Sequence record: PZ452611.1
Length of the DNA: 64,000 nt
Source of the DNA: a phage
Reading direction: 5' to 3' (one strand)
Position numbers and translations under genes: made by a program. Below are positions 4,385 through 61,920 of this stretch, in pieces; the stretch's first letter is position 1, and the number at the start of each line of letters is the position of its first letter. The notes below the pieces were generated by a model. The model did no database searches. It had not been told where the DNA came from and saw only the letters and a list, made by a program, of their open reading frames with translations.

Positions 4385-4960
4385 ATATCAAGTATAAGGG
4401 GGATTTCTAAAATGGATTTCCTCCTTTTGATATTTCACCGGGCTGGATATTTTAAAATTCTTAGAAAATCAGAAAATGGATCGAAAACTAAAATGGATTT
4501 TTTCAGCACAGGCGCGGAAAATTGTGCCAATCTATCTAGCCGTTTGCACCATATTCGAGATCACCGTTCCAGATTTCCCACACATACACACCTCTCCACC
4601 ATACCTTTCTCCACTCACTCTTAGTGATTTATGACGGAAAACCCATCGCTATCAGTGAGTTGCGGTACAATTTTTCCAGTACTCGATCTACTTTTCATCT
4701 CATGGCTTGGATTTTCTGAAAATTTTTCTCGATAAATTTCTCAGTACTCGATCTGTTTTTCGTTTTCTGAATCGGATTTTCTGGAAATCGTTCCGGAGCT
4801 CGACCTGAAATTTTTGGGGACGAAATCGATTTTTCGTTTTCAGAAATGGATTTTTAAAATTTCTATATGGGAATATTTTATGGGATACTGTTTTATAGGA
4901 AATTGTTACGGAGGGTAATTAGCATGCTAACTAAATTTATGAAATGCGAAAAGTTCTCAT
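4385..4960. repeat. ORF-poor repeat region (AAAATGGATTT x4, GGATTTTCTGRAAAT x2, TACTCGATCT x2)
   Basis: short direct repeats read directly in sequence; no convincing RBS-led ORF. Confidence 0.6.
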
Positions 4961-4974
4961 TTAGAATTTTGAAT

Positions 4975-5190
4975 GATAATCATTCTCGTTTGCAGAATAA
5001 CGGGCACCCCCGGTGATTGTCTCCCGGCCCCTACTGCCCCGGCTTGTTATTATAGTAACACACAGGACAAAGAAAGCAAGAAGTTTTTGCATAAATTTTT
5101 AGACGATAATGATAATCGTTCTCATTTTATGCAGCGCCCATCCCCGGTGGTTGTCTCCCCCGTCACCGGTGCCTGCCGTCCTTTCGATAG
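4975..5190. repeat. two ~55 bp direct repeats (GATAATC..TTGCAG..CACCCCCGGTGATTGTCTCCC)
   Basis: copy at 4975-5030 and 5108-5165; related inverted copy at 13801-13850. Confidence 0.55.
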
Positions 5191-5381
5191 GTATATTGTG
5201 CCACCTGGCGGGGCCGCTGTCAACACTTTTCAAAAAATTTTTCTAACCTGATGCGCTAACCGCTGCAACCTGGCGGGGCCAGCCTGGCAGGACCTAACTG
5301 ACCAGGTAGGAGAGAATGAAGGCTTATAATCTGGTGGGCCTGTGCTATAGGATAGGTAACAATTGAAGAGGAGGTACAAAA

Positions 5382-14992: not shown

Positions 14993-15412
14993 ATGAACAT
15001 TAAATCTAATAATCCGGCATATAGCTTTGATAACGCTTTTTGTCACGGTCCGGCGGCGAAAGGATTCGAAATCGATGGTAAACTAATTATTGTCAATGTT
15101 GACGGGGAAGAGGTTGCAGTATATCCGGTGGCAGACGTTAAAAGCCGTTTGCAATGCCGCATGGATGTTACCGCCTACCAGCTTGATCCGGTCCGCATAG
15201 TTGCCCTGGTCCTGGAGGAAGAGATCAAAGCCATGCATCATAGCAATAAGTTTATCGGTGACGCGCAAGATAATATGAAGGTATGCCGCTATAAAGTTAA
15301 TGAAGTGCTTAAAGAATACGGCTTCAAAGATCTGATGATCAAGCGTGATGAAAAATTCCGTTATCGTAACGACCTGGCAAATCGAATCTATGAAATATAC
15401 GAATCATTATAA
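14993..15412 (+). CDS. hypothetical protein
   Basis: 139 aa, TAAGAGG RBS; last gene of + early block. Confidence 0.55.
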   Translation: MNIKSNNPAYSFDNAFCHGPAAKGFEIDGKLIIVNVDGEEVAVYPVADVKSRLQCRMDVTAYQLDPVRIVALVLEEEIKAMHHSNKFIGDAQDNMKVCRYKVNEVLKEYGFKDLMIKRDEKFRYRNDLANRIYEIYESL

Positions 15413-15429
15413 TTTCTTAACTAAACTAT

Positions 15430-15459
15430 CAGGGGCTTTAAAAGGCCCCTTTCTTTTGT
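15430..15459 (+). terminator. rho-independent terminator
   Basis: AGGGGC-ttttaaaa-GGCCCCT followed by TTCTTTTG. Confidence 0.7.
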
Positions 15460-16059
15460 CTGTATTTCTCCTACCACAAACGGCCCAGCCTGGCAAGTGG
15501 AATAATTGACTAGCCAGCAATTACCAACACTGTACAAATATACATATAAAATAACTATTGCATAATCTTTCATCTTGTGGTAGCAGGGCCATTTTTACAC
15601 GTTTTCCTTCCAAAATTGCACGTAATGCAGCTATTGCATAAAATTTAACCTGATGCACATCTTCAATAGCTTGTCAACAACTAAAAATCTTTATAAGTCA
15701 TACACTTACATAACCACAAAAGCGTGTTCTACGTGAAAAATCGAGTATAACTATAGCCGCCAGATCTCAGAATTTACGTACGCTCACCATTCTATAGTCT
15801 GCTAAGTATTTATTCCAACCATAGAATAACAGAATAGTCAATACCTGCATAAAATAATTATTCGTGTAAACTGCATAACATAAATCAGCCGGGGTGTCAA
15901 CATTTTTCGTAAACGGCTCGAAATTATCACTGTGAGCTATCATAAACAGAGAAATCTTTAGTCGTCTAATGTTTACTGTACGTTACTATACTAACTGGAA
16001 TCATTAGATGACTAATAAAAAGATAAGAAATCATTAACAATGCAATTGTTTTATTCATA

Positions 16060-16395
16060 ACAATAAGGCAACTATGCAAACGAATGGCATGGCGCGACGG
16101 AGTCGCGACATAATATAAAAGCAGTAACCATCACCCCCGTGATAGTTTGTCTGCAAACTATTAATCAGATCATAGTTGCCTTGTATTTAGTTAATCATGA
16201 CATAAACTCAGGCATAGCCTTCGTCTCGAGGATGTTAACAAGCAAGGCAACTATAGATCTTCTAATAGTTGCCCTGCTTTTATATTATGTCATAGAAACA
16301 CCCGAAGGGGTGACCAAAGGTCACCTGGCATAGCCAGTGAAATATTGTAAACAAGTTAATTATTATCATGCAAACGAATGGCATGGCTTATCATC
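16060..16395. repeat. repeat cluster: TGCAAACGAATGGCATGGC x2 and GGCAACTAT/ATAGTTGCC x4 in alternating orientation
   Basis: read directly; no coding support. Confidence 0.55.
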
Positions 16396-16560
16396 TCTGT
16401 GTAAATAGTTTGTTTGTAAACAGTTTATACGTGAACAGTTAGCTGTGTAAACTATCAGGCATGTAAGCTATTGAGCATGTAAACAGTAAAGGTCGTGAAC
16501 AGTAAGCGAGCGAATAGTAATGGCGTGAACAATGACAGCGTAAACAGTCAGGCATGTCAA
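16395..16560. repeat. iteron-like array, about 9 copies of GTRAAYAGT at 12-17 bp spacing
   Basis: GTAAATAGT, GTAAACAGT, GTGAACAGT, GTAAACTAT, GTAAACAGT, GTGAACAGT, GCGAATAGT, GTGAACAAT, GTAAACAGT. Confidence 0.6.
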
Positions 16561-18016
16561 TTATGTTCAGTGTGTCACCATTATGTCATATTGTGTCAGA
16601 CAAGTTTTTCTCCTCTTTGTCAAGTGCTGCATGAAAAATTTACAATCTGGTATGGTAGCATTTTTGCGGCCCTGTTTACATTCAGTACTGTATGTATAAG
16701 CCTTGTTGTGTGGGCGCTTAGACGTCTAGACGGTTGGAAGTCTGCAGGTCAATATCTAATCTATTGGTTGCTAACTATATCCCACACAAATAGTAAGAAA
16801 TGCAATTGTTATATGCGTAAACTGTAACTCATGTTATCAATCCCTGTATGGATCGCCAGTGGTGCGCATAATAGGTATTATGTTAAATTGCCAGTAATGA
16901 TAACTATTCTCACAGTGATAGGTATTCTCATTCAACCCCACAAGATAGGTTGCAAATGTTGTGCCACTGTGTGAACGGCCTCGCCTATTAATTTGCCTCA
17001 CTGCCTCGATATTTGAGAATTATTATAAGAATGAGAAGTATTCCCATTTCGTCCGCCTGGCAGCACTCCTGTAGGTCAGGTCAAAATCGGGAGAGAACTG
17101 GACCTGTTCAGATATTTCTGGCTGGCTCTTCAGGTCTGTGTGGGAAAAGCCGACCCCTCCGGCGGCGGGGAGGGGGTCAATTAAAAAATTTACGGGGCAT
17201 ATGAAGCGCTCTTCAGGTAAGGCATGTATTATGGGATGAAACCCTCTTCAGGAAATGATATTTGTGGGTGTGATATTTGCTGGAAAGCTAGATATGACTG
17301 GACTCCTGGCGGGGCAGGGGTAGTACAGACAGGGGAAATATGGGGGATGTAGTTGGGTAAATTGATCAGGCAGGTAGAGTATGGAATATGTTACGAGTAT
17401 GTTAAATATGGAGGGTGAATATCTGCAGGATTTGTGTGTAAAATCAAAGACTTAAGTGGTGTTGTGGTATTTTCTATAAATAATTCAAGTTTAATAGGTG
17501 ATATTTGTCCCTATCCACTTTGTGTGGTAAACAGATTCAGATGAGATTGGTTTACGAGTGTATACATAATATACAAATTAAAGATACAAGAAACCCCCCT
17601 CCCCCTTCGGCTACCATTCACCTTTTCCTCTGACTGGTACTTAAACACTTATTCAGACTCTTCAGGTTATCACCCATATATCATATGGCAGTGACTGGTG
17701 TCCTCCGGCCCCTCTTTCGTCACCCGTCCGCTTCGCCATGCTAATGCCATAGCCAATGGTTCGGTTGTTCACCCTGTTCACTCAGGTGTATCTCCATACC
17801 CCTTCAAACCGAAGAGAACAGAAAACCCGAATTACTCGGTAAAAGAAAAGAGAAGAACTTAATTTTATCAGGATAAGCAAGAATGTCAAGGCATGACTGC
17901 TCACTAAACAAGCAAACAGTCATGTGTGGGAGGTAAGTGATTGTGGTGGTAGGAAATTTAGTTGAAAGATGTGTTATAGGTGCTCCCAGCACTTTAGCCG
18001 GGTAGCTAATTGTGTG

Positions 18017-18298
18017 TCAGTCCAGCGGTTCATCCTCTACTTCACTGAAATCAATGTTCATGGTCTCTTCCCAACCATCGATCTCAGCACAAGAGTGAAG
18101 TTCTTTAGGGTTTACTCCCAAAGCCTCAGCAACAGAGTCTATATTTAACACCTCTGGCAGGTATGATTCATCGAATTCAAGGTAAATCAGGCCACGAGTG
18201 TTGTCAGCCCCACCAAATATTTCTATCTTCATGAAATCTCCTCTGGAAATGAGAGTGTGAACAGGGTTTATACGTTCCAATGCACTGGAATTATGCAC
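18017..18298 (-). CDS. acidic hypothetical protein
   Basis: 93 aa; first ORF of minus-strand block. Confidence 0.45.
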   Translation of the reverse strand: MHNSSALERINPVHTLISRGDFMKIEIFGGADNTRGLIYLEFDESYLPEVLNIDSVAEALGVNPKELHSCAEIDGWEETMNIDFSEVEDEPLD

Positions 18299-18352
18299 GT
18301 TTGCCTCTTCAGGCCATGCTTTAGCATGAGGAACCTGTGTGGGCTCGGTGCT

Positions 18353-56720: not shown

Positions 56721-56794
56721 ACCAGTAAAAACTTAAATATCTGTACTATAAGGATTCGTATGTTTTATGTTCGCTCTGGAACAGAGGTTAGTAA

Positions 56795-56876
56795 CTGTCC
56801 GTGATACGGACACTACTGTCCGTCACGCGGACACATCTGCCCGTAATACGGACACTAACTGTCCGTGATACGGACA
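56795..56876. repeat. four tandem 21-bp repeats with palindromic core CTGTCCGTGATACGGACAC
   Basis: copies at 56795, 56816, 56837, 56858; GTCCGT/ACGGAC inverted repeat in each. Confidence 0.75.
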
Positions 56877-57363
56877 CATAAAGAATATAACTAAAATAAC
56901 TAAATAATAAAAAATAAAAGATCTAGTACTTATGGTACTAAAGTACATATACTTAACTTATGTAGAATATACTAGATCCTAAGTACCATGTTTTAAATTT
57001 ATTACTTACCATAGGTAGTGTCGGCCCTTCATTGGCACTCGCCTACGAGGGGCGAGATGCCGGGCCTCCGTAGTGCACACATGCAGGTCTGTTAACATGT
57101 GTGGGAGCGAAGCGATAGCGCAGGCCAAAGGCCGAGCACTAATGTGGACCACCGACGAAAGCTTGCCAGCGCCGTAAGGAGTCGGTTGAGAGCCTCCCGC
57201 GCGAGTTTGGATAAAGTTTATGTGTGGAAACGGACAATGAGGCCCCTAAATCGCTCCACAGCCATATAAACTATACCAAGTAAGGCAATCGCACCAGTTT
57301 GATAGAAAAGCTCGTTACAAAGCGATACAGTGAGTTTTTCTATAACTTGAAGAGGAGGCAGCT

Positions 57364-59708: not shown

Positions 59709-59805
59709 GCTAGGTAAGCCCTTTGGCAAGGGCGAGGATTTTTAATCCTGAAAATAGACGAGGTAGTCGTTGAATACATAGGTGGTTCGATTCCATCACC
59801 TAGCA
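59709..59805 (+). tRNA. aberrant tRNA-like element (possible tRNA-Lys TTT-like with about 30 nt extra arm)
   Basis: perfect acceptor GCTAGGT/ACCTAGC, canonical D-arm and T-arm (GGTGGTTCGATTCCATC), anticodon-like loop TTTTTAA, but 30 nt insertion between anticodon and T arms. Confidence 0.35.
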
Positions 59806-59812
59806 CCTTTTT

Positions 59813-61156: not shown

Positions 61157-61584
61157 TGTCTAAGATTTACGGACCGTGTTCTGAAAAGCAGAAGATGATC
61201 CTCGAAAACGATGCAGATATCTTGGTAATCGGCGGTGCAGCAGGGTCTGGCAAGTCGTTCCTCTTGCAGTTGATGCCACTTAAAATTATTGATGACCCCC
61301 ACAGCTCTGTGGTTATGTTCCGAAGAACAACCCCACAGTTGGAAGGTGAGGGTGGGCTATGGCCTAAAGCAGTAGCTATTTATAGTGATCTGCCTGAAAA
61401 CATTAAGCCAAAGTTTAGAGAGAAGGATCATAAGTTCATTTTTCCACGGTTTGATCCGAACACTGGCAAGTGGGATAGAAGCAAAAAGGGAGCTGTTGTA
61501 AAATACTGCCACATGGAGTATGTACAAGATAAGCTTAACCATCAGGGGCTTGAGTACACCATGGTTTGCTTCGATGAGGGTTAA
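61156..61584 (+). CDS. terminase large subunit, exon 1 (ATPase N-terminus)
   Basis: Walker A GGAAGSGKS, Walker B-like CFDE; frame closes at TAA inside putative intron. Confidence 0.6.
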   Translation: MSKIYGPCSEKQKMILENDADILVIGGAAGSGKSFLLQLMPLKIIDDPHSSVVMFRRTTPQLEGEGGLWPKAVAIYSDLPENIKPKFREKDHKFIFPRFDPNTGKWDRSKKGAVVKYCHMEYVQDKLNHQGLEYTMVCFDEG

Positions 61585-61587
61585 TTT

Positions 61588-61920
61588 GTAGCTCTCGTAA
61601 AACCTCCCTAATTGCGGGGAAATCTTTATTATTGACACCACCAACCTGTTATGGTAACATAATAGAGGCTTCGAAGAGAGATCGAAGGTATGGTAACAGT
61701 GTGTTAATTTAGATAATCCGCAGCGAAGCATCCGAGAGGATGAACGTTCAACGACTAGTCGAAAGACGTAGAATCAAGCGATTCGAAACGGGAGGGTAAG
61801 CGATTGTTGTCGCTTATAAGATATAGTCTGGTCTGCATGGAGACATGCAGCTGCCTGAGAATGGCGGGGCAAGACTAGCGACCTTGCCTGAACATAAACG
61901 ACACAATTCGAATGGGAGCA
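61588..61920 (+). mobile_element. group-I-like intron 1 (no ORF), boundaries approximate
   Basis: ORF-free insert between terminase frames; shares AATTGCGGGGAAATC and ATAGTCTGGTCTGCATGGAGACATGCAGC blocks with second insert. Confidence 0.5.

Follow-up and report, generated by a model that had tools for sequence, protein, structure and literature searches.

A probable site of DNA packaging and end processing in the non-coding box of Escherichia phage rV5

A terminal repeat between converging gene blocks

The 64,000-nucleotide stretch of phage DNA analysed here (sequence record PZ452611.1, hereafter the window) corresponds to Escherichia phage rV5 (NC_011041) in reverse-complemented orientation, and coordinates convert as rV5 position = 122030 − window position. 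We focus on a 2.6-kb region (15413–18016) that is 100% identical to rV5 104014–106617, on the opposite strand, and is bounded by gp159, which is read on the plus strand of the window up to a stop at 15412, and by gp158, on the minus strand, with its stop at 18017. Both flanking gene blocks converge on this region and end short of a 459-bp direct terminal repeat (DTR), an unstranded feature located at 16599–17057 (104973–105431 of the rV5 record) by alignment to the repeats of phage Gotham. The rV5 reference record carries no annotation across 104014–106617. The 2013 genome paper drew the region as a grey box 'labeled non-coding' and presented the genome as circularly permuted. Between genes 163 and 164 it anticipated terminators acting in both directions but found none, and it explained a GC-skew change at 104425–105475 by the change of transcriptional orientation. 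The repeats first noted in the region exceed chance and are conserved in ~120 Vequintavirus genomes; rV5 and 17 other vequintaviruses make up the 18-genome alignment used for the comparisons below.

A repeat_region of 459 bp is annotated at either end of the Gotham record, and the two copies are mutually identical and align exactly to window 16599–17057. An assembly or a concatemer contains the DTR once, and virion DNA has a copy at each of its two ends. In blastn searches of phage records, vequintavirus records that start or stop inside the region always do so at query position 1187 (window 16599) or 1645 (window 17057): those of bov10K2, bov22_2, ECP2309, HdK5, EdH4 and EcoIv14a_Aya each start exactly at one of these two boundaries, and those of EdH4, HdK5 and ECP2309 hold the terminal repeat at two places. 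The rV5 DTR is 92–96% identical to the repeats of its relatives, has the same boundaries and comprises 22% variable columns among the 18 genomes. Both boundaries, TGTCA|GACAAGTTTT (cut TGTCA|GACAAG) and CGTCCGCC|TGGCAGC, are invariant in 18/18 genomes, and an indel hot-spot lies immediately past the right one. Fixed ends have been reported for Gotham (PMC7471380) and, together with 'short terminal redundancies of 458 bp', by Korf et al. for EdH4 and HdK5 (PMC6563267). On the basis of the relatives' record ends, the Gotham DTR and these published 458–459-bp repeats with fixed ends, we interpret the 2.6-kb non-coding box as the concatemer junction, where the physical termini are formed; for rV5 this assignment is made by homology (92–96% identity and identical boundaries) and is very probably correct.

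The alignments also bear out the sequence-only reading of this DNA, which had described a repeat-rich zone lacking any open reading frame (ORF) led by a ribosome-binding site; the zone is conserved, non-coding and cis-acting. No ORF of at least 30 residues combines conservation with third-position bias in the 17 relatives, and the three ORFs singled out at the time (16139–16333, 16495–16827 and 17013–17204) are not genes, being intact in 3, 1 and 0 of these relatives, respectively. The gp158 gene, used as a coding control, has 112 substitutions at third codon positions versus 39 at first and 25 at second positions. The best-preserved ORF of the region (16831–16974, 47 residues, within the terminal repeat) has 10, 11 and 9 variable columns by codon position, lacks a ribosome-binding site and undergoes many radical amino-acid changes among relatives. 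The DTR as a whole, lying between the converging blocks, has no coding signature within 16599–17057. A hidden protein gene is rejected, as the ORFs of at least 30 residues, all checked across the 17 relatives, show no coding signature. Rfam searches of the region, run at the gathering score and with E relaxed to 1, gave no family apart from two chance-level matches on the terminator described below.

Inside the terminal repeat lies an 18-bp tandem repeat, TGATAACTATTCTCA / TGATAGGTATTCTCA (16898–16930, plus strand). A period-18 repeat_region annotated in Alma (L023 1828–1862) and the 34-bp repeat_regions of magaca and pangalan fall at about the same position, a correspondence estimated by coordinate offset. 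We dropped a 14/19 match to the Fur box at 16893, within the DTR, as a chance occurrence because it is one among many matches of this kind in the window. Two much better, near-consensus Fur boxes occur in a second ORF-poor zone (4635–5255), at 5105–5123 (17/19 to GATAATGATAATCATTATC) and 4969–4987 (15/19); each is followed ~20 nt further on by CCCCGGTGRTTGTCTCCC, and the same zone holds T-rich short repeats at 4680–4860.

Elements on either side of the terminal repeat

The plus-strand block is closed by an intrinsic terminator at 15431–15459 (plus strand; stem at 15431–15450, then a T-run), and annotated terminators occupy the homologous positions in Murica, Schickermooser and Alma. It is followed by a conserved, unstranded and mildly AT-rich spacer (15463–16060; GC 32–39%) that lies at the genome end on the side of the iteron-like arrays, is 87–96% identical in the 17 relatives and holds no intact ORF with a coding signature. 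Next comes a module of 294 bp bracketed by the direct repeat ATGCAAACGAATGGCATGGC (16074–16093 and 16368–16387, plus strand), which had been noticed before as a 19-bp repeat and is corrected here to 20 nt. In phage FV3, the segment between the 20-bp repeats is precisely absent and one copy is retained; the module therefore looks dispensable. The motif GGCAACTAT is present four times in alternating orientation, as had been claimed, at 16067 (+), 16172 (−), 16246 (+) and 16265 (−), against 0.56 expected per window. Its pairs are held within a long unstranded palindrome of 185 bp (16107–16291) that terminates in an 18-bp perfect inverted repeat. As single-stranded DNA this palindrome has a predicted folding energy of −64.9 kcal/mol (z = −9.1 vs shuffles) and would be capable of forming a cruciform or hairpin. 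The segment 16290–16365 is a hypervariable mosaic among relatives.

Between this module and the DTR lie two phased arrays. The first, which we call class A, consists of GTRAAYAGT units on the plus strand (16401–16564) and agrees with the array described in the sequence-only reading after small corrections of its coordinates. Exact copies start at 16401, 16416, 16431, 16479, 16495 and 16540, and degenerate copies at 16447, 16463, 16510, 16525 and 16556 bring the total to 10–11 units in a strict 15–16 bp phase. The six exact copies within 16401–16548 compare with two elsewhere in the 64 kb, and none of 100 shuffles reached eight. Across the 18 genomes, class A copy number ranges from ~2 (MaxTheCat and phita32) to ~10 with the 15–16 bp phase retained, and WM has largely different sequence at this position. 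The second array, class B, had been overlooked and comprises three TRTGTCA units on the plus strand (16571–16598) with a period of 10–11 bp. It stops at the cut site, within the small palindrome TGTCA|GACA. The number of class B units varies from 1 to 6 per genome, and the unit touching the cut, like the boundary itself, is invariant in all 18. An array that ends at the cut, with its last unit and the boundary conserved across these genomes, is what would be expected of a terminase recognition site in phages that have the terminase in common.

The right-hand side of the DTR bears different motifs. The four copies of CTCTTCAGG reported previously are confirmed at 17126, 17209, 17244 and 17658, with a fifth at 18305, and all five share a strand; the window has 8 occurrences versus 0.5 expected. 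Read on the minus strand, the three sites at 17126–17252 are CCTGAAGAG 9-mers that form a cluster 69–195 bp beyond the right DTR boundary, and further minus-strand copies (17658–17666 and 18305–18313) lie outside it. Each of the 18 genomes has 4–5 CTCTTCAGG copies, although indels separate them. The previously noted G/C palindrome is also real and corresponds to a G+C-rich hairpin at 17152–17178 that is followed by GGCTTTT on the minus strand and is weakly terminator-like.

Further to the right, the minus-strand transcript would be C-rich and G-poor over 17221–17500 (plus-strand G:C = 80:19). This tract contains the most G/C-asymmetric 250-nt windows of the entire 64 kb, and its asymmetry is conserved in the 18 genomes. 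The composition of a Rho terminator (C-rich, G-poor, at least 80 nt) is found in the minus-strand transcript at 17500–17250 (C:G = 80:19), and the tract at 17500–17221 looks like a Rho-utilisation site judging from its base composition. A G-quadruplex motif, GGGGCAGGGGTAGTACAGACAGGGGAAATATGGGGG, lies in the asymmetric tract at 17309–17344 (plus strand), ~250 bp from the right DTR boundary, and a motif of this type is present in 18/18 genomes compared.

A nearly invariant, unstranded non-coding block of ~350 bp (17610–17962) lies beyond this tract. Its proportion of variable columns in the 18 genomes is 4.8%, compared with 34.7% at gp158 third codon positions and 31–35% in other spacers. Within it, a sigma-70 promoter-like site on the minus strand (TTGACA-16-TGaTAAAAT, 17889–17862) matches 11/12 consensus positions, has an extended −10 element and is aimed at the DTR ~800 bp away; both hexamers are identical in the 18 genomes. 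The block also contains a small hairpin on the minus strand, CCGAGTAATTCGG followed by GTTTTCTGTT (hairpin 17839–17827, element 17817–17839), which is terminator-like, is the first such structure after the gp158 stop and sits in a stretch without any variable column. The minus-strand block most likely ends by means of this hairpin and the C-rich tract. We rejected a host origin for the right-hand spacer, since nothing similar to it was found among 5,426 E. coli genomes.

A probable T7-like packaging junction and its alternatives

The sequence-only reading had put forward a replication origin or regulatory hub as its headline and a packaging site as an alternative. Our analysis supports the alternative, since the repeats adjoin the boundary of the 459-bp DTR at which the virion DNA of relatives starts or stops; the headline found no positive evidence. 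In all likelihood the region serves DNA packaging and the processing of ends; it is not a demonstrated replication origin. Overall, the concatemer junction of a fixed-end phage with a short DTR is the best explanation for its features taken together, and we favour it with some confidence.

We infer a series of events that includes the binding proteins, the role of the arrays, the cleavage chemistry and the contribution of transcription. Replication would generate head-to-tail concatemers with a single DTR copy per junction, and terminase would recognise sequences of the junction. Cutting would take place at both conserved boundaries, TGTCA|GACAAG and CGTCCGCC|TGGCAG, and the DTR would be duplicated as in T7, so that every packaged genome would have a DTR at both ends. 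The TGTCA array, in helical phase and touching the cut, and the GTRAAYAGT array, whose 15–16 bp spacing corresponds to a phase of 1.5 turns, may bind the terminase small subunit or another protein that assists in end processing, with the CTCTTCAGG cluster as their counterpart on the opposite side. We regard a packaging role for the arrays as an evenly balanced proposition. The promoter at 17889–17862 would send transcription into the junction in the manner of T7 phiOR and A0. The plus-strand block stops at the terminator 15431–15459, and the C-rich tract (17500–17221) together with the hairpin 17839–17827 would stop the 37-kb leftward transcription unit before the genome end.

This arrangement resembles the ends of T7 and T3, which also have a short non-coding direct terminal repeat. 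The T7 record contains ~12 (A/T)CCTAAAG units with 13-bp spacing at 174–340, directly after the 160-bp terminal repeat, and more CCTAAAG copies ahead of the right repeat. Among its annotated promoters are A0, an E. coli promoter at 224 that points leftwards, and two promoters of T7 itself, phiOL (405) and phiOR (39229); A0 and phiOR read into the terminal repeat. Flanking arrays of the T7 type (SRL/SRR) are present in rV5: cores of 7–9 bp are set against the repeat at a fixed spacing below 20 bp (13 bp in T7, 15–16 bp in rV5), motif clusters occupy both sides and promoters are directed inwards. Both junctions also have an inverted repeat nearby, which in rV5 is the large palindrome. Chung and colleagues are said to have proposed, in 1990, a hairpin intermediate for T7 concatemer processing. 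There are also differences: rV5 is a 138-kb myovirus with a 459-bp repeat as opposed to 160 bp, its two sides bear different motifs, its end genes point outwards whereas T7 genes all run from left to right, and there is no sequence similarity between the two phages. As rV5 uses the host RNA polymerase, its promoter is of the sigma-70 type, unlike in T7.

Terminase sites built from repeated short boxes are familiar from the lambda cosB R sites, the P1 pac hexamers and SPP1 pacL/pacR. The rV5 TGTCA units are comparable in that they have a helical period of 10–11 bp and end at the cut, whereas those phages make cohesive ends or headful series and not short direct repeats.

Several points weigh against the junction model or parts of it. 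The ends of rV5 are placed by homology with its relatives; circular permutation is what the rV5 paper itself assumed, and PhageTerm results for a vequintavirus led the authors of one 2026 paper to headful packaging. The arrays may be unneeded, given that class A is reduced to ~2 copies in MaxTheCat and phita32 and WM is mostly different there, and Mydovirus genomes have no comparable array on that side. The terminator-like hairpin lies ~20–40 nt past the promoter, an awkward placement for read-through into the junction. We know of no established function for the analogous arrays of T7.

Some of these points would also suit the view that the DTR boundaries alone matter and that the arrays are slippage-prone, near-neutral filler gathering at phage ends without any binding function. 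The strong variation of array copy number and sequence among viable phages, the hypervariable mosaic at 16290–16365 and the absence of a comparable array in Mydovirus are all in its favour. We consider it unlikely, however, as the core motif and the 15–16 bp phase are kept across the 18 genomes despite turnover, the TGTCA unit at the cut is invariant and GTRAAYAGT is almost restricted to this spot within the 64 kb.

The block at 17610–17962 might instead owe its conservation to a product of the promoter at 17889–17862, either a non-coding RNA or a micro-protein, and not to packaging. Its constraint equals that of gp158 first and second codon positions (4.8% variable columns), the near-consensus promoter with its extended −10 lies inside it, and it has small hairpins and the CCTGAAGAG motif. 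Against this, no Rfam family matches with an E of 1 or less, a transcript presumed to start from the 17889 promoter folds no better than shuffled sequences (z = −1.2), the ORFs of the block show neither third-position bias nor ribosome-binding sites, and nothing similar to the block turned up in E. coli genomes or other genera; the block varies too little for covariation to be assessed. We hold such a product to be improbable.

We give a similarly low probability to a replication origin, in which the GTRAAYAGT units would be iterons for a phage initiator and AT-rich DNA or the palindrome would melt to start replication beside the genome end. Iteron-type origins such as lambda ori and plasmid oriV share with this region tandem direct repeats in non-coding DNA with AT-richer sequence nearby, and the 185-bp palindrome is close to the array. 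The conserved promoter could prime synthesis, by analogy with phiOL and phiOR beside the T7 ends. The flanks are only mildly AT-rich (32–42% GC in 100-bp windows vs 43% for the genome) and no sharp AT island adjoins the array at this window size. The rV5 units also have a 9-bp core and a 15–16 bp period, as compared with 17–22 bp for classical iterons, their copy number is unstable (2 to ~10, with one genome almost devoid of the array), and the palindrome module is deleted in FV3. No iteron-binding initiator has been described for rV5, no cognate initiator gene is known, and its replisome is T7-like according to the 2013 paper. Cumulative GC-skew, proposed earlier as a check, has its maximum in this region (a terminus-like polarity) and its minimum near 54–56 kb, although gene orientation confounds the skew here, a conclusion that the rV5 authors had reached as well.

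The window offers a better-placed candidate at 56794–56879, by the skew minimum, which could be an origin or an operator array. It consists of four tandem 21-bp units, ACTGTCCGTGATACGGACACT, each with the palindrome GTCCGT-N3-ACGGAC, and is followed by very AT-rich DNA (56880–57000). This site lies near the zone of divergent transcription at the skew minimum (~54–56 kb).

Finally, the invariant block and its promoter could constitute an undescribed cis-acting or RNA element of large myoviruses that couples host-polymerase transcription across the junction to end processing or replication, a speculative extension to which we attach little probability. If true, the block would be a sigma-70-driven functional analogue of T7 phiOR and of the concatemer-junction pause signal, and the iteron-like arrays would be a protein-loading platform.

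Related genomes and implications

The terminal repeat has counterparts in Mydovirus, another genus of the subfamily. In Klebsiella phage KB57 (Mydovirus), converging genes enclose ~1.8 kb of gene-poor DNA. Phage DP has an annotated terminal repeat of 514 bp, and the record of KP12 begins at the same point within that zone. Phage KPP-1 was reported to have a 514-bp DTR by PhageTerm and fixed ends. The published Vequintavirus and Mydovirus repeats (Gotham, EdH4, HdK5, KPP-1 and DP) are the same element, that of Mydovirus lying in the equivalent convergent non-coding zone. These reports give the length of the repeat and make no link to the rV5 box, the arrays, the palindrome, the asymmetric tract or the invariant block.

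In KB57, five CTGAAG copies occur within the 600 bp before the equivalent boundary, at the same relative position as the rV5 cluster; this parallel between genera is no more than suggestive because the hexamer is also common in KB57 coding DNA. KB57 has no class A-like array. With the region as query, blastn in a mode for distant similarity returned Vequintavirus matches only, and a word-7 comparison with KB57 gave weak matches, the sole colinear one being at the iteron-side end of the repeat (E = 0.02). Synteny through the gp153 homologue was uninformative because this gene is located elsewhere in other genera. In KB57, the DNA that separates the terminal repeat from the last gene (L026 3441–3618) contains sigma-70-like promoters aimed at the repeat. 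One of them precedes KB57_184, a hydrophobic ORF of 39 residues with a good ribosome-binding site that has no equivalent in rV5.

Phapecoctavirus, which belongs to a different subfamily, encodes a gp159 homologue (92% identity), which in Schickermooser and ESCO5 is found ~1.2 kb from where the record ends, and a 328-bp terminal repeat has been reported for this genus (PMC6563267). We rejected it as a comparable end, for its spacer is unrelated to that of rV5 and bears no comparable array; the end-adjacent gene is thus shared and the end itself is not.

Some observations from the same searches concern other records or other parts of the window. A set of 18–19 GenBank records (MG0656xx, e.g. MG065666 and MG065690), named 'Campylobacter phage', are 92–96% identical to the region and are probably mislabelled or contaminating vequintaviruses. 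ARAGORN predicts a tRNA-like gene of 99 nt in the tRNA cluster at 59709–59807; its anticodon, 'atcc', has four bases, and the Rfam tRNA model scores it at only 35.5 bits. A group I intron (Rfam, 84.9 bits) at 61572–61850 is probably the interruption of the large-terminase gene described in the rV5 paper.

Terminal repeats of vequintaviruses are published, and the core fact is hence already known for relatives of rV5. What is new is the link to the 'non-coding' box of rV5 and the correction of 'circularly permuted'. The arrays beside the repeat, the palindrome, the G/C-asymmetric tract and the invariant block are likewise newly described. Our literature search found no transcriptome, origin mapping or account of these arrays for any vequintavirus.

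For the type phage of Vequintavirus, the 'non-coding' box would be the physical genome end, which corrects the reference description. Vequintaviruses are common candidates for therapy and biocontrol, and true ends would aid engineering, rebooting and the choice of consistent start coordinates. The judgement of transduction risk also depends on the type of end, because fixed-end packaging rarely takes up host DNA. Our analysis provides defined candidate terminase-recognition sequences and one strongly constrained element, and suggests that the T7-style junction design, with arrays on both sides and promoters directed inwards, extends to a large, unrelated myovirus.

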